A stretch of DNA of 64,000 nt from Cyanidioschyzon merolae (lineage: Eukaryota), in the NCBI GenBank assembly GCA_000091205.1, contig AP006497.2. One strand, given 5' to 3'. Shown here piece after piece: positions 1-49,483 of the stretch (the first letter of the stretch is position 1; every line of letters begins with the position of its first letter). The translations under genes and the position numbers were made by a program. The notes under the pieces were generated by a model. The model was not told the origin of the DNA. It saw only the letters and a program-made list of their open reading frames with translations, and searched no databases.

Positions 1-772
1 ACAGCATCACGAAGATCGCGTCGATCCACATCTCCGAGAATGTTGGCGTCTCTGTGCGATACCCGTATGCACAGTCTGTTTCGTGCGGTACGCCTGGGGC
101 GTACCCAGCATACGCTGCTGACACCACCAGCTACGGATGTCGTGTGCATGCATCGAACAGTGCGTGTTCGGAGATTGCAGGACAAGTTGTAGCTGCCGGA
201 GCCGGGTCCATAAGCGCTGGATCGGGACAACTCGGGGAATGCACCGAGTTGGGAGCCATCATAAGCGGTGCACACGTTGGATAGATTTGTCGCTGTCGCG
301 CGTTTCACGAAGCGAATCTCGACAGCTAATCACCTGGACGGGTCGTGTGCACGTGAAGATCGCGGAGTCAGCGTGTGTGTCGACGCGCAGAATTCGTTGG
401 GTTCTGGCGTCGACAGATGCCCTCGACTGTGCAGCGCGCCGTGCTTGTTCACCATGGTGCCGGTCCAACAGACCCAAAGTTTGAAACTTGCCTGCCGTGT
501 TAGGTGTCAGGGGTCCATCGCGAGCTTCCAAAAAATATTTCGGAAAGCGTTCTATTCTTGCGCTGCAGCGGTGCCAGCGGCCTTGCCATGCGTCTGGTGC
601 TTGCCGAACCGCACGCGAGTCGTCATGATCAGACACAATGCATATCGTACTCGCTTGCGCTGTCGCAGAGCGAGCGCAATCCTTGTAGCACGCTGGTGTC
701 GTTGCTCTCTCGGACAGACGGCACGCGGAGAATGCACTGATGCAGACGAGCCACCGCAGGCATGGCGTTCGC

Positions 773-4856: not shown

Positions 4857-6266
4857 ATGCGTGCGCTTTGGCAGAGACTCGCACGAGCGCCGAGAGAGTT
4901 GTGGCTCATCTACTTGTTGAAACTACTCTCTTCCTATGCATACTTCAGTCTCTCGTTAGCGCTCGTCCTCTACCTGTCAGAGACGCTCGGCTACGATGAC
5001 GAAACTGCAGGTCTACTGTACGGGCTCTACGGGGTCGTTGCCAGCGCGTACGGCCTTGCGAGTGGCTGGCTCATCGATCGTCTGGGAGCACGTCGATCGT
5101 TGCTTTTCGGTGCAGCGCTGGGCACGCTTGGGCGCACTGCTTTGGCGGTGCTTTCGCAACGCCTCGTGGTGACAACGCTGCTGGTCACGGTGCTTCCGTT
5201 CGCCGAGTGTCTTGGGGTGCCTGTGCTAACAATATGCATCAAGCGGTATACGAGTGGCAAAGACGGTACTCGCACAGTGGCGTACTCGTTGTTCTACACG
5301 GTCATGAACGTTGCAGCGCTCTTGGCCGGGCCTGCCGTGGACCTCTGCCACCGATTCTGGGACTTGCGCGCCCTCTTCTGGACCTGTGCGCTCGCCAGCG
5401 CGGCCATGTTCGGTATCATCCTCCTGGGCGTCCGTGAAATCGAAGTCGACGCAGAAGGCCGAACTCGTGATTTTGTTTCACCGTTTGCGGGAGAGACGGT
5501 TTTGGAATCCCTGCGGCGCCTGGCCGTGGACCAGCGCTTCTGGCGCCTGCTCGTTTTCACGACGCTCATTGTGGGTGTTCGACTCATTTTCCGGCACCTG
5601 GACGCAACATTACCCAAGTATATGACTCGAGTGTTCGGTGAAAGTGCCCCATTCGGACTATTCTATGCAATTAATCCATTCATGATCATCACTCTGGTGC
5701 CGGTTCTTGGCGTTTACACCAGTCATATCGATCATTTCCAGATGATCCTATACGGATCATTTCTTTCGGGATTCTCGGTGTTTTGGATGATGCTCGGTGA
5801 TCGGTACTGGACGGTGGCTTTGTTCATCATGACGCTGTCTCTGGGCGAAGCGGTGTACTCGCCGCGGGTGTACGATTACACAATGGCAATCGCTGCGCGT
5901 GGTAGCGAGGGCACCTACACCTCGTTGGCGAGCCTGCCACTATTCGGCGTACAGTTTTTCACTGGCTGGATGAGCGGCACCTTGCTGCAGCGATATTGTC
6001 CTGCGAGCCCGGCCAGCGCTCGGCAGCCTCGAAAAATGTGGTTCATTATCGCGTTGGCAACCGCTTGGTCCCCACTAGGAATGTGGTTTGCTCGCAACTG
6101 GCTACGAACGGACGTTGCGTCGCGAAAGGCGACCGCATCCGCGGACGCATCACCGGCGAATGCCAATGTCGAGTACGCAACGACAGTTGAGGCCCCGGAT
6201 GCCGAACAAATGACGAAGCGAGCTGTACCCGAAGACAGCATTAGCCAAAGCGTATCAATTGAATAA
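4857..6266 (+). CDS. Major facilitator superfamily (MFS) transporter
   Basis: 469-aa ORF with about 12 hydrophobic helices. The N-terminal half (LIYLLKLLSSYAYFSLSLALVLYLSETLGY...GLYGVVASAYGLASGWLIDRLGARRSLLFGAALG) shows the MFS TM1-loop-TM2 architecture with a D-R-x-G-R-R-like motif. A hydrophilic C-terminal tail follows. Confidence 0.7.
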   Translation: MRALWQRLARAPRELWLIYLLKLLSSYAYFSLSLALVLYLSETLGYDDETAGLLYGLYGVVASAYGLASGWLIDRLGARRSLLFGAALGTLGRTALAVLSQRLVVTTLLVTVLPFAECLGVPVLTICIKRYTSGKDGTRTVAYSLFYTVMNVAALLAGPAVDLCHRFWDLRALFWTCALASAAMFGIILLGVREIEVDAEGRTRDFVSPFAGETVLESLRRLAVDQRFWRLLVFTTLIVGVRLIFRHLDATLPKYMTRVFGESAPFGLFYAINPFMIITLVPVLGVYTSHIDHFQMILYGSFLSGFSVFWMMLGDRYWTVALFIMTLSLGEAVYSPRVYDYTMAIAARGSEGTYTSLASLPLFGVQFFTGWMSGTLLQRYCPASPASARQPRKMWFIIALATAWSPLGMWFARNWLRTDVASRKATASADASPANANVEYATTVEAPDAEQMTKRAVPEDSISQSVSIE

Positions 6267-7768: not shown

Positions 7769-8929
7769 TCAACGAGACCAGCGCAAAAGTCCGCGATGTA
7801 GTTGCACTTCGAGGAGCTCGGCTCCAACCTCTCGTACAAGGCGATTCAGAATGGAGAGCTGCTGCCCCGATTGCGATATCAGGTTCACAACGCAGCCGCG
7901 GCGGTGAAAACGCCCAGTCCGGCCTGCACGATGTGCGTAGTGAATGGGGTCGGTCGGCAAGCCCGCTGCGTTGATGACAAGCCCCACATCCGGGAAATCG
8001 AGACCGCGAGCTGTCAGTTCCGTTGTAACCAGCACTCGAATGATGCCGTTCCGAAAGTAGTCCATGACTTGTGCCCGTTGAAACTTGCTTTTTCGGGGAC
8101 CGCTGCCCTCTATGCGGCCGGATAAGGCTGCCGCAATGACGCCTCGTGCATCGAGTCTCTCTGCGTAAATATCTGCCGTGCGTTGATCAGGCACGAACAC
8201 CAGAGTCTGTATCACAGCTTCGTTGGTGAGTTCAAGATTCTCGGTGCGGAGATGATCGGGATCGTCCCAGGATTGCTTCAGTGGATCCACGGGAGACACC
8301 AGCAATCGGGTGACGGCATAGGTGAGCCTCCGAATGGTGTCCATTCGCAGATGGTCCGGCACCTTGAGGTAAAAATGACGGATGGATTTCGGTAGCAGTG
8401 CCTGGCTGGTGTCGGCACCATGCCCGGTGCGCAGTAGGAATGGTTGCTTACGCGTGCACTGTAGCGCCGTTCGCAAAACGTGCGGCTGATCGCTAGTTGC
8501 CGAAACAAAAACAAACTGGCGCTCCTTTCCAGACGACGTCGGCGAGCGAAAATGGCGCAACAAGCGCTCTGTTTCCTCTAAGTGAACACCTTCGAGCAGG
8601 CGGTCTGCCTCATCGAGCACCACGGTTTCGAACGAGGCCGCGGGAAGCCTACGACCTCTGCGATCGATCATCACCTCGATCAGGCGTCCCGGGGTACCCA
8701 CAATGACCTGCGGTGGCAACTTGCGGAGGCGCTCGAGCTGTCTCTCCACACTGGTCAGGCCGATCAGGCCCTGCGCTCGAATGCTCAAGGATGCAAAACG
8801 CTCACATTCGCGGACGACCTGAACGACTAGTTCCTGACTCGGAACCATGACGAGTAAGGTAGGCGCGCTTCGTGCCGAGCCCCGCTCAATCTCCTCGCAA
8901 AGAGTATCGATCGTTGGTAGCAGATATGC
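7769..8929 (-). CDS. DEAD-box ATP-dependent RNA helicase, exon 2 (motifs Ia through VI)
   Basis: Translation from 8929 reads AYLLPTIDTLCEEIERGSARSAPTLLVMVPSQELVVQ (motif Ia PTRELA-like). Later motifs are TPGRL (Ib), VLDEADRLL (II, DEAD), SAT (III), TTELTARGLDFP (V) and HRAGRTGR (VI). The reading frame stays open upstream of the Met reported in the ORF track, back to an AG acceptor at 8930-8931. Confidence 0.8.
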   Translation of the reverse strand, partial: AYLLPTIDTLCEEIERGSARSAPTLLVMVPSQELVVQVVRECERFASLSIRAQGLIGLTSVERQLERLRKLPPQVIVGTPGRLIEVMIDRRGRRLPAASFETVVLDEADRLLEGVHLEETERLLRHFRSPTSSGKERQFVFVSATSDQPHVLRTALQCTRKQPFLLRTGHGADTSQALLPKSIRHFYLKVPDHLRMDTIRRLTYAVTRLLVSPVDPLKQSWDDPDHLRTENLELTNEAVIQTLVFVPDQRTADIYAERLDARGVIAAALSGRIEGSGPRKSKFQRAQVMDYFRNGIIRVLVTTELTARGLDFPDVGLVINAAGLPTDPIHYAHRAGRTGRFHRRGCVVNLISQSGQQLSILNRLVREVGAELLEVQLHRGLLRWSR

Positions 8930-9230
8930 CTAAACTCGATGCCAGCTCACTTCAATGGTTAGTTTTCTTGTTCGCTTTCAGCAGGAGCACTGAGGCTCGC
9001 GCTTCCGTTGCCCGGCCTGGAGCGGCAGGGCATGACGACTCGAGCGAGTCTCGGTCTCCCGAAGCAACCCTCGCGTCGTTCAACCGACGGAAAGTCTCTT
9101 TGCTCTCGGCCGCATTCCATCGATAGGACGCTAAGCGCTCAGCAACGCGACTGGCGCTCGCCGCCGCGTCGTCCGATCGTCAAACTTCGGCCTAGTTCCT
9201 CAAAGCCGCAGCGCATAATCCATAACTTAC
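8930..9230 (-). other. Spliceosomal intron (301 nt, phase 0) of the DEAD-box helicase gene
   Basis: On the minus strand the donor GTAAGT begins at 9230 and the acceptor TTTAG ends at 8930. Splicing joins ...GSGKTW to AYLLPTIDTL..., restoring the canonical DEAD-box spacing between motif I and motif Ia. Without splicing, the frame hits a stop 12 codons into the intron. Confidence 0.8.
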
Positions 9231-9992
9231 CCATGTCTTCCCGGAGCCTGTAGGCGCCTTAATCACGCCGCTCTGACCTGTTCTCAAAAGAGGAATCGCA
9301 CGACGCTGCACCAAGGTCGGTGCGTTGATGCCGTTTGCAGCCAGTATCGCCCGCACTTTTGCATTCGCGACCAGAGCGGAAAAGTCAGCGTCAGCATTCG
9401 CTATCTCCGCTTCGCTGTCACCGGGTATGAGATACGAGTCTATCAGGGAAGCCGACGCTGCTTCCACCTGCTCAGCTGGGCTCTTTTCGACCGCCGGAGA
9501 CGGCGGCAGCTTCGCAGATGAACCCGAACGTTGCCGTCGCTTTTCACCTGGGGGTGAAGCCAAGGCTTCTTGCCCGTTGCCGTTCCGTTTCTGTGCAAAG
9601 CTAGCTGGTTTACCATAGCCGTTTTTAGGGCCGTCACGAGCACTCGGTGGACCGGAAGCATCCCGACGTCGCGGGCGCTCGCGAGCCATGCACCACCAGC
9701 GATGCCGGCTGTAGCAACGTTCGCTGCTCCTCTCCAAAGCAGTGGAATTGTGCTTTCTCGCTGAGGGCACACTTGGGCTCAACGCAATCCAAGACGGTAT
9801 TTCCGTAATCGCCATCGAAAGAAAACCTCTTGAAGCACGCTCAGCGAAGAGGCCGTCGAGTCCAGCGGTGCCAGGACGCTGTGCACGTCGCCGCGGGGCA
9901 CTGGAATGACCCTCGCCCTCCTGCAACCCGCGCTGCACCTTGTTGTGCTGAACGAGTTGATCGTCGTAGAGGTAATCACGCGGTTTCCGCAT
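9231..9992 (-). CDS. DEAD-box RNA helicase, exon 1 (N-terminal extension, Q motif and Walker A). The start Met is uncertain.
   Basis: Encodes ...GINAPTLVQRRAIPLL (Q motif) and APTGSGKTW (motif I). The codon TGG at 9231-9233 is followed on the minus strand by GTAAGT. The ORF track runs through this into the intron and hits a stop at 9192. The N-terminal ~180 aa is an R/S/G-rich extension. The Met at 9992 overlaps the divergent EVE ORF start, so the real start may be a downstream Met. Confidence 0.7.
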
Positions 9993-10050
9993 GCTTGGAA
10001 CGATATTCGGGACCGGGTTATTGTTCTTGGTCCCAGTAACGCCAACTCTG

Positions 10051-10698
10051 ATGAAACTGCGGAAACGATCACTACCTGGTACTTGTGCTGCGAGCAGTCG
10101 CCGCGCTGGTGCTGTGCGAGCCCAGGTCGAGCGCTCTTCCCCAGAAGCAGAAGCGGTTCAGTTACCCGATCGTTCGGCGGAAAAGATCCAGAAACATCGC
10201 CTTGGAGCGAAGAAGCATGCCGTTGCGTATTATTTGGTAAAAAGCGAGGGTTCAGGGCCGCGCAAGTTCACCGTTGATGACCTTGCGGCGAGTCCTCTGC
10301 GTTGCACCAGCTGGGACGGCGTGCGTAACTTCCAGGCCCGCAACGTGCTACTATCCATGCAACTTGGAGACTTTGCCCTCTTCTATCACTCAAACTGTAA
10401 GCAAGCGGGGATAGTGGGCATTGTCGAGATCGTCCGGGAAGCCTACGTCGACCAGACCCAATTCGATAGCACGGACTCCGAGGCGTACGACCCCCGTGCG
10501 ACTCCCGACAAACCACGCTGGTATGCGGTGGACGTGAAACTTCAGTTGAAGCTACCGCGACCGATTCCGTTCGAGGAGTTGAAACAGTATGCAACGCCGG
10601 GCGGTCCACTGGACGGTATGCTGCTGTTCTCGCAGGCGCGCTTGAGCGTGCAACCGGTGCGCCCGGAGCATTTTCGATTTATTCTCGGCCTTTTTTGA
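10051..10698 (+). CDS. EVE (PUA-like) domain protein, thymocyte nuclear protein 1 (Thy28)-like
   Basis: The ORF is open from 9991. The conserved EVE core reads HAVAYYLVKSEGSGPRKFTVDDL...WDGVRNFQARNVLLSMQLGDFALFYHSNCKQAGIVGIVEIVREAYVDQTQFD...RWYAVDV, preceded by a basic region (MKLRKRS). The start at 10051 is chosen because the Met at 9991 overlaps the head-to-head helicase ORF. Confidence 0.75.
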   Translation: MKLRKRSLPGTCAASSRRAGAVRAQVERSSPEAEAVQLPDRSAEKIQKHRLGAKKHAVAYYLVKSEGSGPRKFTVDDLAASPLRCTSWDGVRNFQARNVLLSMQLGDFALFYHSNCKQAGIVGIVEIVREAYVDQTQFDSTDSEAYDPRATPDKPRWYAVDVKLQLKLPRPIPFEELKQYATPGGPLDGMLLFSQARLSVQPVRPEHFRFILGLF

Positions 10699-11555: not shown

Positions 11556-12815
11556 TCAGGCGGCCTTTTTCTTGGCTGCGTCTATTTTCTTCTGATCCAT
11601 ATGCTTCGCATACGAATAGATGAGGGTACCACCGACGGCGAGCGCCACACCGAGCCAATTAAGCGGGCGCATGATCGTACCAAATGCGATAACACTGGAT
11701 AATATGATAGCTAAACGCTTCACGACGTTACCAATCGAGAATGTCAATGGCGAAACATCCTCCAGTACGCCATACGATGCTTCGTTGTACAAGTGATAGA
11801 GCAGACTCGCCACTGCGATGTAGCCGAACACAGTGCCAGCGCCGATTCCCGGAATGCGGGACGCGACTTTCGGTAAACCTTCAAAGAGCAACGCCATGGG
11901 CAGCTCCAAGAAGAAGCTTATGATTGTGATCAGACCGTAGGTGTTGAAGGCGGTCAAGCTGGCGTCCTTCTTGGTGTCGCCGAGACTCACCTTGGAGGTT
12001 ACGTTTCGAGCGACAAACGCAAAGTTGCTCGCCATCGCGTTCAGGAAACCAGCCATCGTAAACGTTAACTCGCTGATGGATGAGAGTGCAACCCCAACGA
12101 TAATGGGAATCATGGCAAAGTACACCATGGGCGAGTAGTACTCGTGGAGAAAGAGCGCGGAACCCAGTGCACCGACCACTGGTTCCGCCGACTTCACCGT
12201 GTGCGTGAAGGAAATCGCTACCGACGAGAAAGATAAACAACTTGTCGCATGGCCTATGGTGTGGAAGAGAGACGGCAGAATTAGAGAGCGAATGAGCTTT
12301 CCGTTCACCTGCGGACGCCGGCGCAATCCCAGCAGCCACAGCACACTCACGTAGAGCGCTCCGACGCCAAGTTGTATCGTCGATAGAACCCAAGGATACG
12401 ACCACATATTCAACGTCTTCTTGTTCACGATATTAAAAACGACATTATACAGGTACCACATGAAGAACCAAAAACCGACTTTCAAGCGCTTTCGGCTAAG
12501 GCCAAGAAACACGGGTTTCGTCTGCGCGTCACCCGCGCTTGCCGGCATCGGTGACGACGGCGATGATGCGCTCTCCACCGCACAGCACAGCGCGCGACGT
12601 GAAACACCCACAGAGTGCACTGGAGCGGAGACGGCAGCACCGACTCGGGCCGGTCTCTTGGGGAGCACAACACCCCCGCAGCGAAACGCCGGCGAACCTT
12701 GAGACGCTAACCCAGACGCAGCGTGATGCACACGACTGCGCTGCAGCGTCCCCGTACCTCCGGGATGGACAAAGCTCAAACGCGTAGTGATGCACGCCGC
12801 ACGCATGGCTAGCAC
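11556..12815 (-). CDS. Triose-phosphate/phosphate translocator family (plastidic phosphate translocator-like, DMT superfamily) with an N-terminal extension
   Basis: The TPT core is strong: FWFFMWYLYNVVFNIVNKKTLN...SFTHTVKSAEPVV...LYHLYNEASYGVLEDVSPLTFSIGNVVKRL, with two halves of about 5 TM helices each and a C-terminal KKKAA tail. About 100 aa N-terminal to the first TM segment is S/A/R-rich with few acidic residues, which looks like a presequence. An alternative start is the Met at MPASAGD. Confidence 0.85.
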   Translation of the reverse strand: MLAMRAACITTRLSFVHPGGTGTLQRSRVHHAASGLASQGSPAFRCGGVVLPKRPARVGAAVSAPVHSVGVSRRALCCAVESASSPSSPMPASAGDAQTKPVFLGLSRKRLKVGFWFFMWYLYNVVFNIVNKKTLNMWSYPWVLSTIQLGVGALYVSVLWLLGLRRRPQVNGKLIRSLILPSLFHTIGHATSCLSFSSVAISFTHTVKSAEPVVGALGSALFLHEYYSPMVYFAMIPIIVGVALSSISELTFTMAGFLNAMASNFAFVARNVTSKVSLGDTKKDASLTAFNTYGLITIISFFLELPMALLFEGLPKVASRIPGIGAGTVFGYIAVASLLYHLYNEASYGVLEDVSPLTFSIGNVVKRLAIILSSVIAFGTIMRPLNWLGVALAVGGTLIYSYAKHMDQKKIDAAKKKAA

Positions 12816-14141
12816 TGCTTCAGAAACGTACGAACAGACCAGGAGAGATACCCAGGAACAGCAACTTCAGTTTCAAGTACGATCGTTTGCACGGCGTGCG
12901 CAACGACAGGTGCGGCGTCGATGATCGCGCCCTGGGGCGTCTGTGGCGGGCGGGGCGCCTCGCACTGCGCCAGCGCACATCGCGATGCCGCACCTGCACG
13001 CATGGGCCGTACAACATAGTATAAATATGGAAGTATGTAGACGCGTGATGTGTCGCTGGGCGGCGGGTACGCCACAGCCCAGCGCAGCACACAACATATC
13101 TGGTCAGTGCGGCGACACGGGTGCGCGTACGCATTACTCGAAGCGCTCGCGGTGTCGGTATGTTCGATATTCACGAGCGGACGCTGCTCCCGGGAGAGTC
13201 GAGATCTGGGTCGGCCGGGGCGTATCGAGTGCGCCAAAGCCGCCACTGGATGCTCGAGTACGACCACCAGAGGTATCGTATGTGCCGCAGCTTGTACATT
13301 GGCGCACCACCAGAAATTGCAATCCGTACCAGAACCCTGACAAATCCTTGTTGAGTCTACCAGCGGCTATTTCTTATCCGCTCTTTCCCTATAGATACCA
13401 GGCATAGTATCCCGTACGTCTCCATCTCATCTTTCCCTATAGATACCAAGCACAGCATCTTGTATATGTCCATCTCATCCTTCCCTATAGATACCAAGCA
13501 TAGTATCCCGAATATGTCCATCTCATCCTTCCCTATAGATACCAGGCATAGTATCCCGTACGTCTCCATCTCATCTTTCCCTATAGATACCAAGCACAGC
13601 ATCATGTATATGTCCATCTCATCCTTCCCTATAGATACCAAGCATAGTATCCCGAATATCTCCATCTCATCCTTCCCTATAGATACCAAGCACAGCATCT
13701 TGTATATGTCCATCCCATCCTTCCCTATAGATACCAAGCACAGCATCATGTATATGTCCATCTCATCCTTCCCTATAGATACCAAGCACAGCATCTTGTA
13801 TATGCCCATCTCATCCTTCCCTATAGATACCAAGCACAGCATCTTGTATATGCCCATCTCATCCTTCCCTATAGATACCAAGCACAGCATCTTGTATATG
13901 TCCATCCCATCCTTCCCTATAGATACCAAGCACAGCATCTTGTATATGCCCATCTCATCCTTCCCTATAGATACCAAGCATAGTATCCCGAATATCTCCA
14001 TCATCGACATAGCAGCGTCAGCGCTATGGACACCGTGCCTCCGCTGCGTCGATGGAAACGCGCGGCCGACGGCGCATCGGCCGGAGTACGCACCTCAGAC
14101 GCGTCAACTGAACAGCTCGCTGCTGGCTGCGGTATGCGTTT
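12816..14141. promoter_or_regulatory. Divergent (head-to-head) intergenic region between the TPT and family-A DNA polymerase genes. It contains the 48-bp minisatellite.
   Basis: The region is flanked by the start codons of two oppositely oriented genes at 12815 (minus) and 14142 (plus). No coding signature apart from the repeat-maintained ORFs. Confidence 0.4.
13378..14005. repeat. Minisatellite: 48-bp unit, about 13 tandem copies, in two alternating variants
   Basis: The unit tccatctcatccttccctatagataccaagcacagcatcttgtatatg is repeated head to tail. It alternates with a variant ending ...caagcatagtatcccgaatat(g/c)tc and a caggcatagtatcccgtacgtc form. The period is divisible by 3, so ORFs persist through it on both strands. 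Confidence 0.9.
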
Positions 14142-16988
14142 ATGCGCTGCGCTGCGTCGTTTCAGAGACCCGCAGAGAGCTACCATGATCTGCAGCCTAC
14201 GCTGACATTGCGAACGGAGTGCAACCAACGCAGTTCCCCGGTGAAGCGTCTTGAAACGCGTCCAGTTATCATGCGGTTAGGCGTAGGGTCTTGCCGGTTG
14301 TGGCTGGGCGCATTCGTGTACGCACTGCGTCCCGCTCTGCGAAGAGACGGAAACGTTTGGCAGCAGTGGCGCCGGGCACATGCCCTCGTGCCTGCTGTGC
14401 CTCGACGACGCTGGCTGTGTGCGAACGCCCGCCGTTCGGCTGCTAGTACCTGGGACGAGGAAACGGACGTGGTTGGTGACGAGTTCAGCTCCGTGAACCT
14501 GGTACAGGCGAGCGCGGCAAAGATAACCGAAGGCGACGAGTTCACCGCCCAGCGACTGCAGTTGCTGAACGCGCCTGAGCGCGAGAGCGCTGCCGCCACG
14601 CTCGAAAGGTCACCGCCGCCTGGTGTAACCGTCGTGCGCAACCGCGCAAGTGCGTTGCGCGTGATTGATCGGCTTTGGCAACTTCAGAAAGAGTCGGAGC
14701 TTCTTTACGGACGTCGGGCTGCTTCGGTGCCGAGGCGATGGCGTCTCATAACGGAGGGTTGTACCCACTCGAATGGCAACGGTGTGCTCCACGAGGACAA
14801 CACGCTCCAGTGCAAGCGTCTGTATCCACCGACCGCAGCGGACTGGATGGAGCACTCGCAGTGTTATCACGCTTGGGATACGGAAACCATTGGCATTGAT
14901 CCGACAGAGGACTCCCCTGTTGGGAAAGGTCAGGTGATCTGTCTCTCGGCGTTCTGTGGGCCGCGTGTAGACTTTGGGAATGGACCCCGCCTTTGGATCG
15001 ACAATTTTGGCGACGCACAAGGTACGCTGGACTATTTCAAGTCTTATTTCGAAAATGAGGAAATTCCCAAAGTTTGGCATAACTACAGCTTCGACCGAGC
15101 GGTCCTTTATAACCACGGCATCGACTGTCGAGGATTCGGCGGCGATACCATGCACATGAGCCGACTATTGGACGCAGCGAGACTGCGTTACTCTCTGGAG
15201 GCGCTCACGGAAGACTTTCTGCTGCGGAAGAAACGCAGCATGCGGGAGCTGTTCGGTCGGCCTCGTATTTTGAAAAATGGAAAACCAGGCAAGGAGATTA
15301 TCGTACCGTCCACCAGCGAACTCCAGATGGACCCTGAGACCATGTACCACTGGGTGCAGTATAGCACCTATGATGCCGAGGCAACCTGGTATCTGCGCGA
15401 TAAATTTGAGCGTCTGCTTCGTGAACAGGAGATCCTCGGCTCGGAGCGAACCATGTATGACCTTTATACGGAATGTTTCGTTCCTTTTGGTGCGGTCTTA
15501 ACCGATATGGAACGCATCGGCTTCAAGATTGATATTGCGCGACTCCAAGATGCGCAACGTGTAGCCGAAGCCGACCGCCAACGTTACACTGCAATGTTTC
15601 GAGAATGGGCAGCGCGCTACTGTGCTGATGCAATCCACATGAATGCCGAGTCGGAGAATCAAAAGCGCCAATTCTTTTTCGCCCCGGTCCGGAACAAGAA
15701 AACCGATGAATTGTTGCCAGCAGAGCGCACTTTCGAGGTCGAGAACACGGAACAGGTCGTGGAGTCCGCGGGGAAGAAGCCCCGCAAGAAGCGAACCATA
15801 CAAATATCCGGTCTCGGGCTGCCGCCCGTGGCGTTCACTGCAAGCGGTTGGCCGGCTTGCACGGCGGTGGTGCTGCGGAAACTGGCGGGCACGCCGAGCG
15901 CGAGTCCCGCCCAGGGCGGGCTCCTGTATGACTTTCTCACCAAAGAGCGACGGGAGAGCGCGGAGGATGCGCTTGCGGCGTGCAAAGCCGTTGAGGCGCT
16001 ACTTGAGGCTGGTGCAGTCGGCACCCTGCTCGACAGTTTCATCGATCCGCTGCAGAAGATGGTGGATAAGAACCATCGCATTCATGCGTCGCTCAACTTG
16101 AACACGGAAACAGGTCGGTTGTCGTCGCGGCGGCCGAATCTGCAAAATCAACCCGCTCTAGAGAAAGATCGCTATCGTGTTCGGGATGCTTTCACTTGCG
16201 AGGAGGGCAATACGCTGATTGTAGCGGACTATGGCCAACTCGAGCTGCGATTACTTGCGCATATCGCCAACTGCCGCAGCATGATTGAGGCGTTTAAGGC
16301 TGGTGGCGACTTTCATTCGCGCACGGCGAGCAGCATGTACCCGTACATCGCAGAATCCGTTGCCCGCGGCGACGTGCTTCTTGAACCCGAGCCCAATGCC
16401 AACGGACAGGCCACTTCGTCGAAGCCGCTGCTCAAGGATGTATACGCAGGGGAGCGACGTCGGGCCAAAACACTCAATTTTTCAATCGCATACGGGAAAA
16501 CGCCAGCTGGGCTGGCGCGAGACTGGGGCACCAGCCTGAAAGAAGCTCGCGAGACCGTAGATGCTTGGTACCGGGATCGACCCGAGGTTCGTGCCTGGCA
16601 GGAGCGCGCTATTAAGTTCGCGCAAACCCATGGATTCGTGAAAACGCTGCTGGGTCGACGGCGGCCTCTGCCGGAGATCAACTCCCCGAATACGAATGCG
16701 GCTCGCCATGCGGAACGTGCAGCGATTAACACCCCTCTCCAAGGTAGCGCAGCCGATGTTGTTATGAAAGCCATGCTGCTCATTCATAGCAACGCACGTT
16801 TGGCTGAACTTGGCTGGCGAATGATCCTCCAGGTCCACGATGAGATCATCCTCGAGGGGCCCGAAGAAACAGTCGAAGAAGCGGAAGCAATTGTCGTTCG
16901 GCTTATGCGTCAACCGTTCCGTGAACCGCTGCGCGTTGACCTCGCTGTTTCGGTCGCTCACGCGAAGACGTGGTTTCGTGCAAAGTAA
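14142..16988 (+). CDS. Organellar-type family-A DNA polymerase (Pol I-like, POP-like) with a 3'-5' exonuclease domain and an N-terminal targeting-like extension
   Basis: Exo motifs: YHAWDTETIGIDP (Exo I, DxE) and YSTYDAEATWYL (Exo II). Polymerase motifs: DYGQLELRLLAHIA (motif A), RRRAKTLNFSIAYGKT (motif B) and QVHDEIILEGPEE (motif C). The N-terminal ~100 aa is R-rich and acid-poor (MRLGVGSCRLWLGAFVYALRPALRR...), consistent with an organelle presequence. Confidence 0.85.
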   Translation: MRCAASFQRPAESYHDLQPTLTLRTECNQRSSPVKRLETRPVIMRLGVGSCRLWLGAFVYALRPALRRDGNVWQQWRRAHALVPAVPRRRWLCANARRSAASTWDEETDVVGDEFSSVNLVQASAAKITEGDEFTAQRLQLLNAPERESAAATLERSPPPGVTVVRNRASALRVIDRLWQLQKESELLYGRRAASVPRRWRLITEGCTHSNGNGVLHEDNTLQCKRLYPPTAADWMEHSQCYHAWDTETIGIDPTEDSPVGKGQVICLSAFCGPRVDFGNGPRLWIDNFGDAQGTLDYFKSYFENEEIPKVWHNYSFDRAVLYNHGIDCRGFGGDTMHMSRLLDAARLRYSLEALTEDFLLRKKRSMRELFGRPRILKNGKPGKEIIVPSTSELQMDPETMYHWVQYSTYDAEATWYLRDKFERLLREQEILGSERTMYDLYTECFVPFGAVLTDMERIGFKIDIARLQDAQRVAEADRQRYTAMFREWAARYCADAIHMNAESENQKRQFFFAPVRNKKTDELLPAERTFEVENTEQVVESAGKKPRKKRTIQISGLGLPPVAFTASGWPACTAVVLRKLAGTPSASPAQGGLLYDFLTKERRESAEDALAACKAVEALLEAGAVGTLLDSFIDPLQKMVDKNHRIHASLNLNTETGRLSSRRPNLQNQPALEKDRYRVRDAFTCEEGNTLIVADYGQLELRLLAHIANCRSMIEAFKAGGDFHSRTASSMYPYIAESVARGDVLLEPEPNANGQATSSKPLLKDVYAGERRRAKTLNFSIAYGKTPAGLARDWGTSLKEARETVDAWYRDRPEVRAWQERAIKFAQTHGFVKTLLGRRRPLPEINSPNTNAARHAERAAINTPLQGSAADVVMKAMLLIHSNARLAELGWRMILQVHDEIILEGPEETVEEAEAIVVRLMRQPFREPLRVDLAVSVAHAKTWFRAK

Positions 16989-17391: not shown

Positions 17392-18762
17392 CTACGAGGA
17401 AGATTTTCTCACAAAGGGATGCTCTAAAAGAGCCGAGGCTGGTAGACGTCGGCGGCAATTGAGTTCGAGCATCTTGCTGAGGAGGTCAAAGGCCTCGTCT
17501 GGAACTTCCGTCTCGGAGGCTGTGTTCGGCCGCCTGCCCACCCGCAGCTGGAGACACAGTTGGCGCAGGTCCACTCCAGGAAAATTGTTCGCGGGAACAA
17601 AAGGGCGTCGACAGGCTTTTGCTGCGGACGCTAGTTTCTGGGTCCCGAATATCTGCTCGAGTTCCAGGAGGGCTTCTTCGTCGCTGCTCGCGCGAAAGAA
17701 CGGATATTGACATGATAGCATGGATAAAAAGATGACGCCCGCGCTCCAGACATCGATGCAGGAATCTTGATCACGATATCGCAGAAGAATTTCGGGTGCA
17801 CGAAATCCGCGAGTTCCCGCCCGCGGTGCCTCTGCCGATTCCATGGTTACTGCCCTACGTCGAGTCCGATCCTCTGTTAAACGAGAGACTTTCCATGCGG
17901 GCGCTCTAGCTGGCGTCGGTGTGAAAACGGGCGCCGTCATCGCAAGTCGCCAGTCATCCAAGCGATCGCGGTCACTGGATACCGTGTCCACTGCATTAGC
18001 TCCTGAGGAAAGTTGCCGGCAAGCGGTTTGCGCCCTGGGATCCCGCCACAAGTTTTGCCCGGAATCGCAGTCGCGGTTTCGCGTTTGCTCGGATTTCTGG
18101 GCGAGGCCAAAGTCAACAAGCACCGCGGCGTCTGGATGCTTGCGATGAAAGAGAAAATTTCCCGGTTTCACATCCCTGTGGATGATCTGATGCCGCTCCA
18201 GAACACTGAGCACGTCCAGAAGCGCGCGCATGTACACGCGCATATCGTCGATGCCCATATCCGCGATCAGGAGACGGAACGGCTCATTAGGGTAGAGCGG
18301 CATCACCATCCAGACTTCATCGTCCCGGCGAAAGATACCCTCAAGGCGCGGAATACCTTTCTCCCCTTGGAGCCCACACAGAAAGCGCACTTCCTGCTGT
18401 ATTCGTCGCGGCTCGTTCGTTTTGTAGAAGCGTTTCACGGCATATGCACGATTTTGAGCGCACGCTTGGTCCAGCACGGCCCTGTACACAGTGCTAAACG
18501 TTCCTGCACCGACGCGTTCGTGCAAAACCAGTGGCGGCCACAAGCTACCGCCTCCACCAACATTTGAAGTATCCGTATATTGGGTCTCGTCAAGGCTTTC
18601 CTGGACGTCTTTCGGAATCGCGCGGGCTGATAATTGGTTTGACGATGTGCGCGCCAACACTTTCCACCTGGCGGAAAGCGCAGCTGCACTCCAGCACAGT
18701 TCCTGATGAGCCAACCCAGATATATACGCTCGTGGTATCGCCGCTGCAGACGTAATATCCAT
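17392..18762 (-). CDS. CDC7: Ser/Thr protein kinase, Cdc7 (DDK)-like
   Basis: Kinase motifs: GAGTFSTVYRAV (G-loop), AVKRF (VAIK), HRDVKPGNFLF (catalytic loop), DFGLAQ (DFG) and AGTRGFRAPEILL. The last is the Cdc7-type activation segment. A long kinase insert lies between DFG and APE, as in Cdc7. Confidence 0.75.
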   Translation of the reverse strand: MDITSAAAIPRAYISGLAHQELCWSAAALSARWKVLARTSSNQLSARAIPKDVQESLDETQYTDTSNVGGGGSLWPPLVLHERVGAGTFSTVYRAVLDQACAQNRAYAVKRFYKTNEPRRIQQEVRFLCGLQGEKGIPRLEGIFRRDDEVWMVMPLYPNEPFRLLIADMGIDDMRVYMRALLDVLSVLERHQIIHRDVKPGNFLFHRKHPDAAVLVDFGLAQKSEQTRNRDCDSGQNLWRDPRAQTACRQLSSGANAVDTVSSDRDRLDDWRLAMTAPVFTPTPARAPAWKVSRLTEDRTRRRAVTMESAEAPRAGTRGFRAPEILLRYRDQDSCIDVWSAGVIFLSMLSCQYPFFRASSDEEALLELEQIFGTQKLASAAKACRRPFVPANNFPGVDLRQLCLQLRVGRRPNTASETEVPDEAFDLLSKMLELNCRRRLPASALLEHPFVRKSSS

Positions 18763-21303: not shown

Positions 21304-23457
21304 TCACGAGCCCAGGAGTCTTCTGATTTCATTGACGACACATCGGGCGAGTGAGCTTGCATCCGCTTCGGTGTGCGCTTCTGCATAAACGCGCACAACA
21401 TCTTCCGTGCCGCTGGGGCGCACGACGATGCGCGCCCCAGCAACTGCTGACTCGTTTGCGGAAACGCTCTCACGAGCACTACGATAACTCGCCACGATGC
21501 GATCTATGCTTCGTTGGAGTTCGGGCGGCTCAACGACACGCTGATCGTAATCCGATGTTACAATCTGGTGACGGTCTGATACCCGCTCAACCAGATAAAC
21601 GCTCGCAAGCGGTGTATAGTAGGCAGTTGCCCAGTCTACCAACGACCAGCGTTTCCACTGTAGTATCGTGGCGATCAGGAGCAGATTCGCGATGCCGTCG
21701 CCAACACCTTGATTGGCGACTCGCGCGCAGCACCGTAAGGGAAGCGGCAATGTCGAAGCATGCGACTTCAACAGCGCATCGCTGAACAGAATCGTGCCGT
21801 GGCCATTGGGTTCAAAGTATAGGCCAATATCAAACCGTCTGGCTTCCTTCTCCAAATGCACGACTCCAGTCCAGGTGCAAATGATCTGTAGCTCAATGAC
21901 GCAGGCGTGATGCGCTCGCTGGGATTCCAGTTCGCGTTGCCGCTTGCGCCAGTACGCCACTGCGGCACCATTGGCGTACACGGTATGGACGAGCGCTACA
22001 CGCCAGGATTTCCGCGCTGCACCCGCTGCGGCCTCAGCGCATGTATTTTGGCTCAAGTACGCATGTTCGGGATGCAGAAACCCCAGCACAAAGTCCAGGA
22101 AGAGTGTTGCCGTCTGATCCCCGTCTAGCAACATGGCTACGCCCTGCGCATCCGCTAGGAAGCACACGAGGCGATCGGCATCGCCATCGAGACTCGCACC
22201 CTGACGTTCGGGTTTGCCAGCTGGGGTCTGTGGCCAACGCTGGGGCAGCCGGTTTCCTTTCTGGACCCAATCTGCTCCGCATTGCACGTTCAATAATTCC
22301 GTTTGGGCTGTCTCCTGGTTACAGCATACAATCTGGATACCGCACTGTGTGCGGAGCGCAGACGCCAGCTCGCACAGGAGCGGCGCACCGACCCCGTTCG
22401 CGCAGTCTACAACCCAGTGATCCATAAGCGCCCGGTGCTCCACGTCTGCCAAATGGAGTGCTTCCGAGAGCGCCCTCGTGGCCTCCACCAAGGTCGATTT
22501 GTAGCGGTTGAGCAGAAACAAGGGCCGTCGCTCGAATGCGTCCCGGAAGTTTGACAAGTCCGATTCGCGCATGTCGACAGGGCTTTCGTTCCACGCTCGG
22601 ACGACTGCGTGCATGGCCGGTGTCGTTGTCATGCCCAGAAGGAGCGCGTCCGCAAACGCCAACGTCTCGCCACCGGAGCATCTCGTCGCGCGCAGATAGT
22701 GTGAAAGCACGACACGTGCGCCTTCCTGCGCATTACTAGCGAGGTGCGGGCTCGAGCTTCTGCTATCATACCCCAAGAGAACGACCGGTATGCAGAGGGC
22801 GTCACGTATGGCCCGGGCCTCCGATATTTTTTCACGATGCACTTGTTCCAGAACGGTGGCGAGCGAGTCGGGCCCCGCTGATGCCCGGACCAGCCGAACA
22901 GCGAGGTGGATCCAAGTTGGGTCCGCCATGCCTCCGTTGGTATCGATAAACTTCACGCCATTCTCGTGCGGTGGGTTATGTGACGCAGTGATCATCAGTC
23001 CTACAGCTACAGTTCTGAACACTGAAGCCGACAAACCCGGAGCTCCCAGATCATCATGGTGTCCGACTTTGTTGGCAGGAAGAGTGCTTCGGGCCTCGGT
23101 TGTCGATGCCCTTTTGGAACCGTCGAGGGCGTGCCTCAGAGCTAGGAAACCTGCTGCGAGCCCGCAACAGAATGCAGCTTTATCGAACGCGTGATCTCGT
23201 GCTGAACCCCGAAGACCTGCCGCGCCGCACTGAAGGTCTTCTGGAACTGTGTCCGACCACGAAGGTAAATAGCGCGCAAGCTGGTGTGCCTCCCAGTCCA
23301 TATATGGCGTTGTCGCCCCACGAGAGCACCAGAGAACACTGCGCTCTGCGGGCACGACGAAGGAGAGTCGCAAATCGTTGAAGTACGGAAGCTTTCTCGC
23401 AGCGCTTGAACAGTCTCTCAAGAAGCTGGTGTCAGACAAAGAAAGGTGCCTGAACAA
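21304..23457 (-). CDS. AGM1: Phosphoacetylglucosamine mutase (AGM1/PGM3 family, UDP-GlcNAc biosynthesis)
   Basis: GAAGLRG (cf. GTAGFR), GLMITASHNPPHENGVKF (active-site Ser loop), LDGDADRLV (metal-binding loop), FEPNGHGT (sugar-binding) and VVRPSGTEDVVRVYAEA (phosphate-binding loop) all match this family. The start is the Met at 23457 or the internal Met at 23301. Confidence 0.85.
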   Translation of the reverse strand: MFRHLSLSDTSFLRDCSSAARKLPYFNDLRLSFVVPAERSVLWCSRGATTPYMDWEAHQLARYLPSWSDTVPEDLQCGAAGLRGSARDHAFDKAAFCCGLAAGFLALRHALDGSKRASTTEARSTLPANKVGHHDDLGAPGLSASVFRTVAVGLMITASHNPPHENGVKFIDTNGGMADPTWIHLAVRLVRASAGPDSLATVLEQVHREKISEARAIRDALCIPVVLLGYDSRSSSPHLASNAQEGARVVLSHYLRATRCSGGETLAFADALLLGMTTTPAMHAVVRAWNESPVDMRESDLSNFRDAFERRPLFLLNRYKSTLVEATRALSEALHLADVEHRALMDHWVVDCANGVGAPLLCELASALRTQCGIQIVCCNQETAQTELLNVQCGADWVQKGNRLPQRWPQTPAGKPERQGASLDGDADRLVCFLADAQGVAMLLDGDQTATLFLDFVLGFLHPEHAYLSQNTCAEAAAGAARKSWRVALVHTVYANGAAVAYWRKRQRELESQRAHHACVIELQIICTWTGVVHLEKEARRFDIGLYFEPNGHGTILFSDALLKSHASTLPLPLRCCARVANQGVGDGIANLLLIATILQWKRWSLVDWATAYYTPLASVYLVERVSDRHQIVTSDYDQRVVEPPELQRSIDRIVASYRSARESVSANESAVAGARIVVRPSGTEDVVRVYAEAHTEADASSLARCVVNEIRRLLGS

Positions 23458-25099: not shown

Positions 25100-26899
25100 G
25101 TGCATTTTCCCTTGAACACGCAGGTATCGCCGGAAGTACACAGAGGGCACGCTGCCCCAGTACATATGCAGAGGCTTGCTCCTCATATGTCGGGAGCGGA
25201 TAGCTGCCGCAACTTTGATGGGCTTGAACCCTTCCGTGACCAGCGGGAACCACGGCCGTCTGGCAGCGGCGCGAGGAGCGGCGACGCAGTGCACGCTGCG
25301 GCTGGTCCGGTCAACGACTGGGGCGGCGGCGGCGGCGGCAGCGGCAACGCCGTGCGGGATCCTGCAGACACCAGAAACCTAAGGGATGCTGGGCAACACT
25401 TTCCACAAAAGAAAAGGCGCTTGAGTGAGGGCGAGTCAGAAGCGTTGATGCGTTTTCGAGAGCTTCGCTGTGAGCGACTTGACCTGAGCGAGTTGCCCCC
25501 GTTGATGCCGGCGAACGATATGCTATCCCCGGCAGCCGCACTCACACCGTCAGGTGCTATATCGGCCACGATTTCTGAAACAGAACTGCGACTGGTGCAG
25601 ACAATCGCAGAGTTTGGACAAAATACGAATACCCCGCGAATTCTAGCGGCGATCCAGGAACATCATCAAAAGGACCTACTGGGCATGCCCGCTGGGACTA
25701 CGCTCGGGCCCAGCAACATGCCCAGTACGCTCAAGCCATCGGATTCATTGCTCTCTAATGCAGCGCCAGCGGGACTTTCTGGGACACTGGACGCGATGTC
25801 GTCGCCAGCGCTCTCTCGGGACAGCGTTCCGAACGTTCCAGACTCGGGATCGATAACGCCGCCCATGGACAGTAACGTTGAGCCGCTCATGCCCGGTTCA
25901 ACGCTGGAATGGTGTCGCCAATACGCCCGTCAGATAAGCTGCCAATATGTTGACGAGCTGCGACGAAGGATGCGGGGCTCCTGTCGACAGTGCGCGGCGC
26001 CCTACGGCTCGTGCAGTCACCGGCCAGTCGACCGCGACGCTGCGCTGGGCGAATGGAGTGCGCTGTCGCCGTCACGCCGTCGAATTGCGAAGAACAGGGA
26101 AACGGCAGCTGTCTCACGCTTCCGCAAAAAGGTGTACATGGAGAGCCTCGAGCGAGCGATTATGAACCTGGAACGAAAATATATGGAAACGAGAAATGAA
26201 CTTGCACAACTTCGCAAACTCTTTGACATGAGCGTCACACCCGTGACACCGATGCATGGACGCGCGGCGCCAGCGACGCAGCCTGAGCGCAGGGCTGAGG
26301 CGGACAGTGCCGCGCGCCCGCCCTTGGCAACAGCTGCGAGTGACGCGACAGGCGCCCTGCAACTCATGGGTGCCGTCACCGCATCCGACGCCCTAGGCAT
26401 GCTCGATGCCGACCGCAGCCCGCCAAATGTGCAGCAGAGAGCACCTGGGCCGGTCGCACTGGCTGCTGAGCCCGCGGAACCGTCACCGCGACTGCTGGAG
26501 GGTTTCCTGCGTCCGCTCCTGGCCAGTGTGGGCATCGAAGGCGAGAACGCCGCAAACGCAATCTCCGGGGCGATGACGACGGCACTCCAGGATGCACAAT
26601 CGCGCTACGCCCTGCTGCATGCGCTGCGTATGTGCGCAGGCACCGTCGCCGGCACCCATGAATCCGAAGAAAACGTGGATGCAGCCACGGACTTGACTGG
26701 GCTGGCGACCAGCCCGTGTCTTCGTCCGTCAGCAGCACGCGCTCGAGCGAATTCCTGTTCCAAGTCGCCGGTCGAGGATCTGGCTGGCGACGCTTCGCCG
26801 CTCGCCCTGGGTCGCATGCACTCGTCTCCGATGGTGTCGGCACGGGCGTCGCGCGCCTCCGGCTCCAGACCTCCGGATTCGGCATCCTCAGGGGCCTAG
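25100..26899 (+). CDS. bZIP transcription factor with long low-complexity flanks
   Basis: Basic region plus leucine zipper: RRRIAKNRETAAVSRFRKKVYMESLERAIMNLERKYMETRNELAQLRKL (N-x7-R and R-x-RKK pattern). The rest is S/P/A-rich and includes a GGC-encoded Gly run. The N-terminal boundary is uncertain. Confidence 0.55.
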   Translation: MHFPLNTQVSPEVHRGHAAPVHMQRLAPHMSGADSCRNFDGLEPFRDQREPRPSGSGARSGDAVHAAAGPVNDWGGGGGGSGNAVRDPADTRNLRDAGQHFPQKKRRLSEGESEALMRFRELRCERLDLSELPPLMPANDMLSPAAALTPSGAISATISETELRLVQTIAEFGQNTNTPRILAAIQEHHQKDLLGMPAGTTLGPSNMPSTLKPSDSLLSNAAPAGLSGTLDAMSSPALSRDSVPNVPDSGSITPPMDSNVEPLMPGSTLEWCRQYARQISCQYVDELRRRMRGSCRQCAAPYGSCSHRPVDRDAALGEWSALSPSRRRIAKNRETAAVSRFRKKVYMESLERAIMNLERKYMETRNELAQLRKLFDMSVTPVTPMHGRAAPATQPERRAEADSAARPPLATAASDATGALQLMGAVTASDALGMLDADRSPPNVQQRAPGPVALAAEPAEPSPRLLEGFLRPLLASVGIEGENAANAISGAMTTALQDAQSRYALLHALRMCAGTVAGTHESEENVDAATDLTGLATSPCLRPSAARARANSCSKSPVEDLAGDASPLALGRMHSSPMVSARASRASGSRPPDSASSGA

Positions 26900-27834: not shown

Positions 27835-28884
27835 TCAGAGAATCGGGACCACGCGACTGGCATGTGCAAATTGCTTCTGCGTAATGCATTCAGCGATCCA
27901 GGTAAGGTTCCGGATTTCCTGTTCCAGCATCCGGAAGTAAGCATAGAAGACCCCGTAGTGGAACTGGGCATCGAAAGACTCGCGCAGAAGCTTCATCTCG
28001 AATTCTAAAAACTGATCCTCCAAGCTATATTCTCCCCGTTCAGCCGCTCGCTGGAAGAGCGCTCGGTATGTACTGCTGAGGTCCAGAGCCATGGCAACCG
28101 CTTGCAAGTCGTCCGCCCTCCCTAGTCGTTGGATGATCTCGTCGTCGAGTCCACCGGGCACCCGCGGAAAGAGCATCATTCGTTCATCCTTCCGTAATGA
28201 TGTTTCCAGTGAATTCAAAGTGATGTTGATGACTCGACGATCAGCCTCGAAAGCGATGAGCGTTGCCATGATTGACCCCGTCATGCCACCGATTCGCTCC
28301 ACACAGAGCTGATAGAAATCAGTAAGGTAAGCCTTGTACAGTAGGTTGCGGATGATTTCCACATTCATCTCCGTCAGGTCATGGACATTGACGCATTCCG
28401 CAAAATAGGGCGCCAACGGCGTATCGACCAGAATCTCTCTATAGAGTTCCTCTGGCGAGTGGATTGCTGTTAACGTTGCAATACCCTCGAATAGGCCCAG
28501 TGGGTGACACTTGTCCAGCAGCTCGCTGAGGTCGCGATTCCGGAGCACACCCATGAGCAGCAGAACTAAATTGTCGATCATGTACGGATACGTCACATAG
28601 TCCAGAAAGGTGGAGAGCGGTGCGTAGGATTGCCCGCGAATGCTCCGAAAGTCGTAAACGAGGCGGTTCATGAGGCAGTCGTACAGGGCCTGGGTCTGCA
28701 GGGGGGCTGGTTCATTCTGCAGCCATAAACCGTAATCCGAACTGTTCAGAATCGTGCGCATATCTTCTGGAGACTCGCACTGAGCCAAATTCGTGTAGTC
28801 TTGGCGACGGAGTAATGAAGCCTTGAGTCCTCTCACGACAGCCTCGAGGTAGCCGTTGTCGGCGTTAAACGTAAGCATATCCAT
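27835..28884 (-). CDS. VMA6: V-type H+-ATPase V0 subunit d
   Basis: The 349-aa ORF matches subunit d end to end in length. The canonical N-terminus is MDMLTFNADNGYLEAVVRGLKASLL (cf. MLFFNVDNGYLEGLVRGFK). Downstream come YDCLMNRLVYDF, FLDYVTYPYMIDNLVLL and a conserved C-terminal half. Complete and intronless. Confidence 0.9.
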   Translation of the reverse strand: MDMLTFNADNGYLEAVVRGLKASLLRRQDYTNLAQCESPEDMRTILNSSDYGLWLQNEPAPLQTQALYDCLMNRLVYDFRSIRGQSYAPLSTFLDYVTYPYMIDNLVLLLMGVLRNRDLSELLDKCHPLGLFEGIATLTAIHSPEELYREILVDTPLAPYFAECVNVHDLTEMNVEIIRNLLYKAYLTDFYQLCVERIGGMTGSIMATLIAFEADRRVINITLNSLETSLRKDERMMLFPRVPGGLDDEIIQRLGRADDLQAVAMALDLSSTYRALFQRAAERGEYSLEDQFLEFEMKLLRESFDAQFHYGVFYAYFRMLEQEIRNLTWIAECITQKQFAHASRVVPIL

Positions 28885-49088: not shown

Positions 49089-49483
49089 TATGAAAGGGGG
49101 CGATACCGCTTCACGTTCAAAACACCACGATCCAATTCTGTATCATAGCCGTATGTGAAGCGCGAGGTGATATGCGGTGCGGCGCATCATCAGAGACGCC
49201 ATCCCTGCACGAGATCGATGCGCCTGAACGGTTTCAATCTGTATATTTCTTGACATGATGGAAGGGAATGGACATGGCATGAACGGATCCAACACAGCCA
49301 TGAACGCCCATGATATAAATTAGAACATCAATGTATCTGTTAGTACAAGGAAGACAGTCGGTTGACGGATGCACCCCTGGCGGACGCACTGCGTACCCGC
49401 TGCAGCGACTGTGCAGAACGTTGCCTGCACCTCCGGCAGCTGGTCTCTTTGGTTACCGTGGTTCGCTCTTCACAGAGTCAGCG
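49089..49483. promoter_or_regulatory. Putative bidirectional promoter between the steroid-5-alpha-reductase and TUG/UBX genes
   Basis: Head-to-head arrangement with about 400 bp between start codons, using the TUG start at 49484. Positional inference only. Confidence 0.3.

Follow-up and report, generated by a model that had tools for sequence, protein, structure and literature searches.

Gene content and identity of the polymerase gene

The window examined here is a stretch of 64,000 nucleotides of DNA from the red alga Cyanidioschyzon merolae, and its subject is the lone long open reading frame (ORF) at 14142-16988 (+), which ran from ATG to stop in the six-frame ORF list and encoded 948 aa. 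An earlier note, made from the letters of the window only, had described this ORF as a homologue of the plant/protist organellar DNA polymerases (POPs), a family-A enzyme with a proofreading domain and an N-terminal presequence. The features of the ORF and the genes around it are collected in Table 1.

In BLASTP the translated ORF was identical at 948 of 948 positions, with 0 gaps, to BAM81611.1 / XP_005537647.1, a record in the 90%-identity cluster of the exact search match that is labelled 'plant organellar DNA polymerase' from C. merolae 10D in GenBank and RefSeq, and the gene of the C. merolae POP has the identifier CMO270C (PMC3914683 Table 1). Since the match to this named record was complete, the ORF is CmPOP itself, which goes beyond the mere POP homology that had been proposed. 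It is virtually certain that the ORF is the nuclear gene CMO270C, encoding the sole POP of C. merolae, or the copy of a near-identical strain, and no evidence contradicting this identification was met.

The same protein was encoded in two environmental contigs with 99.3-99.6% nucleotide identity, in which the gene neighbourhood recurred as well. Environmental contig L002 differed from the window at six nucleotides within the coding sequence (CDS) of the POP, and all six differences were synonymous because the encoded proteins were identical. After the exact match, the protein search gave a graded series of homologues, with those of the Cyanidiales at 63-73% identity to CmPOP, followed in the ranking by oomycetes, dictyostelids, diatoms, a haptophyte, a ciliate and Euglena. 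Land plants came next, where the matches bore the name 'DNA polymerase I A/B, chloroplastic/mitochondrial' and had 44-58% identity and E values of about 1e-193 to 1e-250. The best matches with a name were all POPs, and among them were plant entries so named at 46-47% identity with E values of about 1e-193 to 1e-198.

Domain architecture and catalytic residues

Two Pfam families were identified in the ORF, DNA_pol_A (PF00476; 6e-86, 289 bits) and DNA_pol_A_exo1 (PF01612; 2.4e-12, aa 242-426), in agreement with the family-A polymerase with proofreading domain that had been described before; the coordinates given there were correct as well. The Pfam scan of the 948-aa ORF gave no third family; neither the 5'-3' exonuclease families PF02739 and PF01367 nor an SF2 helicase or primase-helicase domain was found in it. 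CmPOP thereby shares the POP trait of having no 5'-3' exonuclease domain, which is missing in about 92% of POPs (PMC10201439). The two NCBIfam equivalogs of bacterial Pol I scored 366 and 304 bits, about half of their cut-offs of 720 and 600, and the match started at the exonuclease domain. The primase-helicase-bearing organellar polymerase PREX could be rejected as the class of this enzyme, with no N-terminal primase-helicase in the Pfam scan and aa 1-132 predicted to be disordered.

The catalytic residues were mapped through a MAFFT alignment to E. coli polA (MG1655). Every residue of Exo I and Exo II and of polymerase motifs A, B and C, which the earlier note had read as intact, found its counterpart in E. 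coli Pol I, and Exo III proved to be intact too. The DxE motif of Exo I, on which a functional exonuclease had been made to depend, was present on alignment as D246/E248. The catalytic columns of both active sites (Exo I-III and motifs A-C) were invariant in an alignment of 67 POP sequences.

In the PDB sequence search the Klenow fragment and the large fragments of Bst and Taq reached about 200-207 bits (Klenow 207), while Pol theta and Pol nu reached 91 and 90 bits, and no Pol gamma chain was found among the best 60 of the 73 matches. A nuclear repair polymerase akin to Pol theta or Pol nu would have the family-A palm and fingers in common with the ORF, and these two PDB matches are what such a reading can draw on. 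Both are far below the Klenow match and below the POP matches of the protein search (660-850 bits), the ORF has no SF2 helicase domain of the kind carried by Pol theta, and its Exo I-III catalytic residues are intact, whereas Pol theta and Pol nu are without an active proofreading exonuclease. With the tree given below and the experimental localisation of CmPOP in organelles (PMC3914683), the domain content rules this identity out, and the probability left to it is negligible.

A second family-A polymerase is encoded by C. merolae, namely CmPolI (rgPolA), which is bacterial Pol I-like, found in the plastid only and of low processivity, and which carries a 5'-3' exonuclease domain (PMC4166229; PMC10877234) and shows no 3'-5' exonuclease activity (PMC4166229). 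The existence of this enzyme, together with the Klenow-like fold of the ORF product, whose best PDB structure matches are bacterial Pol I, might speak for CmPolI or for a contaminating bacterial Pol I at this locus. The ORF shows the reverse arrangement, with PF01612 present and PF02739/PF01367 absent, and it is closer to POPs of other phyla than to bacterial Pol I (see below). The neighbouring genes, among them those of V-ATPase subunit d, Vps4, a UBX protein and a bZIP protein, are eukaryotic, and one neighbour contains what looks like a spliceosomal intron. CmPolI and bacterial Pol I are excluded by how the domains are arranged and by the complete identity to the POP record, which leave them hardly any probability, and the gene is read as CmPOP.

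Phylogenetic placement

A neighbour-joining tree with 300 bootstraps, in which bipartitions were counted directly, was built from 28 taxa over the C-terminal polymerase region (query aa 607-948), with 311 alignment columns kept. The taxa included 15 POPs that span the eukaryotes (plants, red algae, stramenopiles, Dictyostelium, a ciliate and Euglena), seven bacterial Pol I (two from alpha-, one from a beta- and one from a gammaproteobacterium, and one each from Bacillota, Bacteroidota and an actinomycete), one cyanobacterial plasmid exonuclease/polymerase, three phage PolA and the C-terminus of human Pol theta. For bacterial polA, large replicons of a plasmid collection served as the source. 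The Pol theta outgroup was a 212-aa C-terminal fragment, which covered 175 columns and matched PDB 7zus over its full length with 465.7 bits.

The bipartition that separated all POPs and the window ORF from the rest was recovered in 99.7% of the 300 bootstraps, and the window ORF fell within the Cyanidiales clade, also in 99.7%. Bacterial Pol I, phage PolA and human Pol theta all stood outside the POP clade. In the 311-column alignment, identity to the window ORF was 54-65% for POPs of other phyla, 34-40% for bacterial Pol I, 37% for Pol theta and 23-30% for the phage enzymes.

Both the full-length identity to the named POP and the position in the POP clade thus bear out the assignment to the POP type. 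The earlier note had named grouping with Pol theta or Pol nu as the outcome that would speak against POP; Pol theta was placed outside the POP clade, and Pol nu scored less than half of Klenow in the PDB search. It had also proposed a phylogeny with POP, Pol gamma, bacterial Pol I and PREX. In the present tree, which is distance-based, rests on 311 columns and includes POPs, bacterial Pol I, phage PolA and Pol theta but no Pol gamma, PREX or Pol nu, the ORF grouped with the POPs and apart from bacterial Pol I. In global phylogenies POP is a separate lineage of uncertain origin (PMC10877234; PMC10201439; PMC6523293), and published trees place it apart from Pol gamma (PMC3914683; PMC10877234).

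To obtain bacterial relatives for the tree, POP-specific peptide patterns were also scanned over 185,579 bacterial and archaeal genomes, and a single locus was matched, at 20-3040 of CAYWOQ010000083.1 (L004), a contig of a metagenome-assembled genome (MAG) named 'uncultured Roseivirgaceae bacterium'. The POP-like gene in it had 30-63% identity per segment and was broken into nine exon-like pieces in alternating frames. Because of this broken structure, L004 probably represents eukaryotic DNA that was wrongly binned with a bacterial genome, and not a bacterial ancestor of POP; it was not used for the tree.

Insertions and predicted structure

With the definition of POP insertions taken from PMC7699545 and PMC10201439, CmPOP was seen to carry three segments that E. 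coli Pol I lacks, of which two lie in the thumb and one lies in the fingers; plant, oomycete, ciliate and red-algal POPs have them too. The AlphaFold2 model, for which the alignment of 67 sequences was the input, had a mean predicted local distance difference test score (pLDDT) of 82.9 and a predicted template modelling score (pTM) of 0.80. In this model aa 1-132 were disordered, and the folded exonuclease domain began at about aa 160, with a strand at 162-165 and a helix at 168-189 (pLDDT >90). Insertion 1 was modelled as a beta-hairpin with strands 528-534 and 550-556, and a beta-hairpin at the thumb tip has been described for POPs (PMC10201439). The loop that precedes Exo I was present in Cyanidiales and in neither other POPs nor Klenow, and aa 199-228 within it, with pLDDT <50, were predicted to be disordered.

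In the Foldseek search against the PDB, the Bst Pol I large fragment and Klenow were matched with template modelling (TM) scores of 0.80-0.88 normalised by target length and 23-28% identity, the best figure (0.88, normalised likewise) belonging to the Bst fragment. Nothing closer than bacterial Pol I fragments was found in the PDB library by Foldseek, and no solved POP structure turned up there.

In Arabidopsis POPs, insertions 1 and 3 confer lesion bypass, deoxyribose phosphate (dRP) lyase activity and microhomology-mediated end joining (MMEJ), insertion 2 may aid processivity, and the insertion-3 lysine K866 of AtPOLIB is required for translesion synthesis and MMEJ (PMC7699545). K765 in insertion 3 of CmPOP was invariant in 67 POPs, and alignment with the Camelina PolIB orthologue suggests that it is the counterpart of AtPOLIB K866. 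By analogy with the plant POPs, the insertions of CmPOP may likewise serve processivity, lesion bypass, dRP-lyase activity and MMEJ.

Start codon and presequence

The second candidate start codon, which had been placed at about 14271, was confirmed as an in-frame Met at exactly 14271, corresponding to aa 44. The description of the N-terminus as Arg-rich was correct for the region overall, but the arginines are mainly downstream of M44 and fewer in aa 1-43. The 61 residues of aa 44-104 comprised 12 R, 0 K and 1 acidic residue (D, with 0 E), for a net charge of +11, while aa 1-43 comprised 6 R, 1 K and 4 acidic residues.

For the published localisation, primers CMO270C-130F and CMO270C-300R were listed by Moriyama et al. 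2014 in Table S1 (PMC3914683), and the result of the green fluorescent protein (GFP) fusion for CMO270C was given as 'pt, mt' (PMC3914683). The gene-specific parts of these primers matched the window at 14271 and at 14417-14441, that is, CDS nt 130-300 or aa 44-100, so the dual-targeted GFP construct began at M44.

This leads to an alternative in which the gene is the same and the annotated start is wrong, so that translation would begin only from M44 to give a protein of 905 aa, with aa 1-43 being 5' untranslated region. The start of the dual-targeted construct at nt 130 fits it, as do the conservation with Cyanidiales homologues of 59-73% identity, which begins at about aa 56, the Met that homologue P0002 has three residues upstream of the position aligned to M44, and the likeness of aa 44-104 to a classical presequence, set against the four acidic residues of aa 1-43; an out-of-frame ATG at 14134 that overlaps M1 was counted on the same side. 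Against it, M1 is the start annotated by RefSeq and GenBank, and in the strains of the 90% cluster the frame through aa 1-43 stays open with one substitution. GC content by codon position, computed for aa 1-43 and aa 44-104 and for the remaining CDS, also gave it no help: at the third position (GC3) it did not separate aa 1-43 from aa 44-104, and with 0.60 against a CDS mean of 0.63 ± 0.08 it was uninformative on whether aa 1-43 are coding. Translation from M44 only is given a little less than an even chance, and the rest of the probability is divided between use of M1 alone and use of both starts; translation of aa 1-43 is unproven.

The out-of-frame ATG opens an upstream ORF of 23 codons at 14134-14205 (+), in the +1 frame, which overlaps the annotated start at 14142 and would be relevant only if transcription begins upstream of it.

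If both starts are used, M1 (14142) and M44 (14271) might yield a long and a short precursor that bias import to plastid or mitochondrion, and the 48-bp minisatellite upstream of the gene might affect the start or the level of the transcript. Targeting by isoforms from two starts has reportedly been proposed for C. merolae LIG1 by the authors of the localisation work and is said to have been shown for an Arabidopsis POP. The only published construct for CmPOP, from M44, was already dual-targeted, and for CmPOP this two-precursor arrangement is considered unlikely. The choice of start codon is an annotation detail by which the identity of the gene as CmPOP is unaffected. In practice it leaves one loose end, namely that the database start M1 differs from the M44 start of the sole localisation experiment.

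Gene neighbourhood

The earlier note had taken the window to be rich in nuclear genes that service an organelle, and cited SmpB, MECR and a TPT-family translocator in its favour. The TPT and SmpB genes are indeed present, each with a strong Pfam match (Table 1). For MECR, a zinc-ADH-like ORF lies in the window, but its sole match is the weak one to ADH_zinc_N. The richness itself did not hold, with about 3-4 of the roughly 20 ORFs with a Pfam match being organelle-related and the others ordinary nuclear housekeeping genes; since the organelle-related genes are a minority, the remark carries no weight. The window is an ordinary part of a compact nuclear genome with hardly any introns, and its genes are functionally mixed.

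Table 1. Features of the CmPOP gene and other genes identified in the window (aa positions refer to the 948-aa translation)
Feature	Position	Strand	Evidence or remark
Full annotated CmPOP (CMO270C) CDS	14142..16988	+	948 codons + stop at 16986-16988; ORF list, protein match, PMC3914683 Table 1
Annotated N-terminal extension, aa 1-43, status uncertain	14142..14270	+	unconserved in Cyanidiales homologues; pLDDT ~30; outside published GFP construct
Arg-rich presequence, aa 44-100, sufficient for dual targeting	14271..14441	+	primer mapping, GFP 'pt, mt', composition
3'-5' proofreading exonuclease domain, aa ~160-430	14619..15431	+	PF01612, Klenow alignment, model, invariance in 67 POPs
~50-residue lineage-specific loop between helix A and Exo I strand, aa ~190-240	14709..14861	+	two alignments and model
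Family-A polymerase domain (thumb, palm, fingers)	15432..16985	+	PF00476, Klenow 207 bits, Foldseek, alignment
POP insertion 1, thumb tip, aa ~515-556, K/R-rich (GKKPRKKR)	15684..15809	+	no E. coli Pol I counterpart; in all aligned POPs
POP insertion 2, thumb, aa ~583-616, far shorter than land-plant version	15888..15989	+	alignments to Klenow and plant POPs
POP insertion 3, fingers, aa 742-768, includes K765	16365..16445	+	27-aa gap in E. coli Pol I
Exo I	D246/E248		E. coli Pol I D355/E357
Exo II	N314/D318		E. coli Pol I N420/D424
Exo III	Y407/D411		E. coli Pol I Y497/D501
Motif A	D696/E701		E. coli Pol I D705/E710
Motif B	R772/K776/F780/Y784		E. coli Pol I R754/K758/F762/Y766
Motif C	H899-D900-E901		E. 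coli Pol I H881-D882-E883
MFS transporter	4857-6266	+	
DEAD-box helicase, two ORFs	7769-9992	-	
EVE-domain protein	9991-10698	+	
TPT-family translocator	11556-12815	-	PF03151, 5e-88
Protein kinase	17392-18762	-	
Phosphoacetylglucosamine mutase (PAGM)	21304-23457	-	
bZIP protein	25100-26899	+	
V-ATPase subunit d	27835-28884	-	
Cytidine deaminase	30374-30970	+	
Glucokinase	31867-33684	-	
Zinc-ADH-like protein, 'MECR' candidate	36765-37955	+	only ADH_zinc_N, 9e-10, weak
Vps4	39749-41467	-	
Protein with ABC permease domain	44942-47698	+	BPD_transp_1, 1e-21; 918 aa
Steroid 5-alpha-reductase-like protein	48210-49088	-	
UBX protein	49331-51586	+	
NUDIX protein	62328-63407	-	
SmpB	62869-63876	+	PF01668, 1.6e-50; domain aa 185-329 after long N-terminal extension

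A minisatellite of 48 bp, with 12.9 copies and 90% match, occupied 13385-14002 between the TPT gene (-) and the POP gene (+), 140 bp upstream of the POP ATG, and created spurious repeat-peptide ORFs at 13357-14010 (-) and 13460-14188 (+). In metagenome contig L001, which was 99.3% identical, the array had only 2.9 copies and was shorter by exactly 480 bp, the length of 10 units, and this difference could be either a real copy-number polymorphism or a collapse in short-read assembly. A scan for sigma-70 promoters and terminators upstream of POP gave no match, the model being a bacterial one unsuited to a eukaryotic gene.

The genome of C. merolae is known for very few introns. Between the two helicase ORFs, a donor (GSGKTW|GTAAGT) at 9230, an ACTAAC branch site at about 8963-8958 and an AG acceptor at 8931-8930 were observed on the minus strand, and the joined exons read GSGKTW-AYLLPTIDTL, which restored the motif I context. 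With a length of about 301 nt, the segment 8930-9230 (-) of the DEAD-box helicase gene thus resembles, judged by these sequence signals, a spliceosomal intron.

The SmpB ORF (+) overlapped the NUDIX ORF (-) by about 540 nt, and one of the two is probably over-extended at its 5' end. The ABC permease domain of the 918-aa ORF is unusual for a eukaryotic nuclear gene, and the product is presumably an organelle-envelope transporter of bacterial ancestry. Two further large ORFs, at 773-3169 (-) with 798 aa and at 55286-61456 (+) with 2,056 aa, had no significant Pfam family or a sub-threshold match to Mon2_C only.

Comparison with known polymerases and role in the organelles

The land-plant POPs (AtPOLIA/AtPOLIB and the rice POP) resemble CmPOP in the exonuclease-plus-polymerase architecture, the three insertions, the dual targeting and the clade, at an overall identity of about 42% that rises to about 60% in the C-terminal polymerase region. 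They differ from it in that C. merolae has one POP only, encoded by a single gene, while plants have two paralogues (PMC4166229), and in that CmPOP has a much shorter insertion 2, a shorter N-terminal region and the additional Cyanidiales loop, about 50 aa long, that precedes Exo I. With Klenow and the Bst large fragment CmPOP shares the fold, at TM scores of 0.86-0.88 normalised by target length, and the catalytic residues of both active sites; unlike bacterial Pol I, it is without the 5'-3' exonuclease domain, carries the POP insertions and falls into a separate clade at the low identity given above. Pol gamma of opisthokont mitochondria and PREX of the apicoplast are, like CmPOP, nucleus-encoded family-A organellar replicases with proofreading (PMC10877234; PMC6523293), but they are lineages separate from POP in published phylogenies (PMC10877234; PMC10201439). 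PREX carries an N-terminal, Twinkle-like primase-helicase (PMC6523293) and Pol gamma of animals works with an accessory subunit (PMC4166229), while the CmPOP ORF has neither.

CmPOP has been located in both plastid and mitochondrion by immunoblots of isolated organelles and by GFP fusions (PMC3914683; PMC10877234; PMC6523293). It has 3'-5' exonuclease activity, and as a single polypeptide it synthesises with a reported processivity of about 1,300 nt, where E. coli Pol I stays at <15 nt; phosphonoacetate inhibits the POPs generally, with half-maximal inhibitory concentrations (IC50) of 1-25 uM (PMC4166229, a review by the authors of the biochemical work).

The feature was therefore already known, with CMO270C annotated as POP and its product purified, assayed, localised and biochemically studied; the observation in the earlier note was correct and not new, and its value as a discovery is small. 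What it does illustrate is that a POP can be recognised from raw sequence alone, including its motifs and the second Met. It also marks the window as nuclear DNA of C. merolae, which is of use for reading the other features in it. The identity of the gene is settled, and nothing further is needed to establish it. CmPOP is among the founding members on which the POP family was defined. On this reading the protein is made in the cytosol and imported into plastid and mitochondrion by its Arg-rich N-terminal presequence, for which aa 44-100 are sufficient. In both organelles its core, a Klenow-like exonuclease and polymerase with additional insertions in thumb and fingers, then copies the organellar DNA as a replicase of one subunit that is highly processive and proofreads in the 3'-5' direction.

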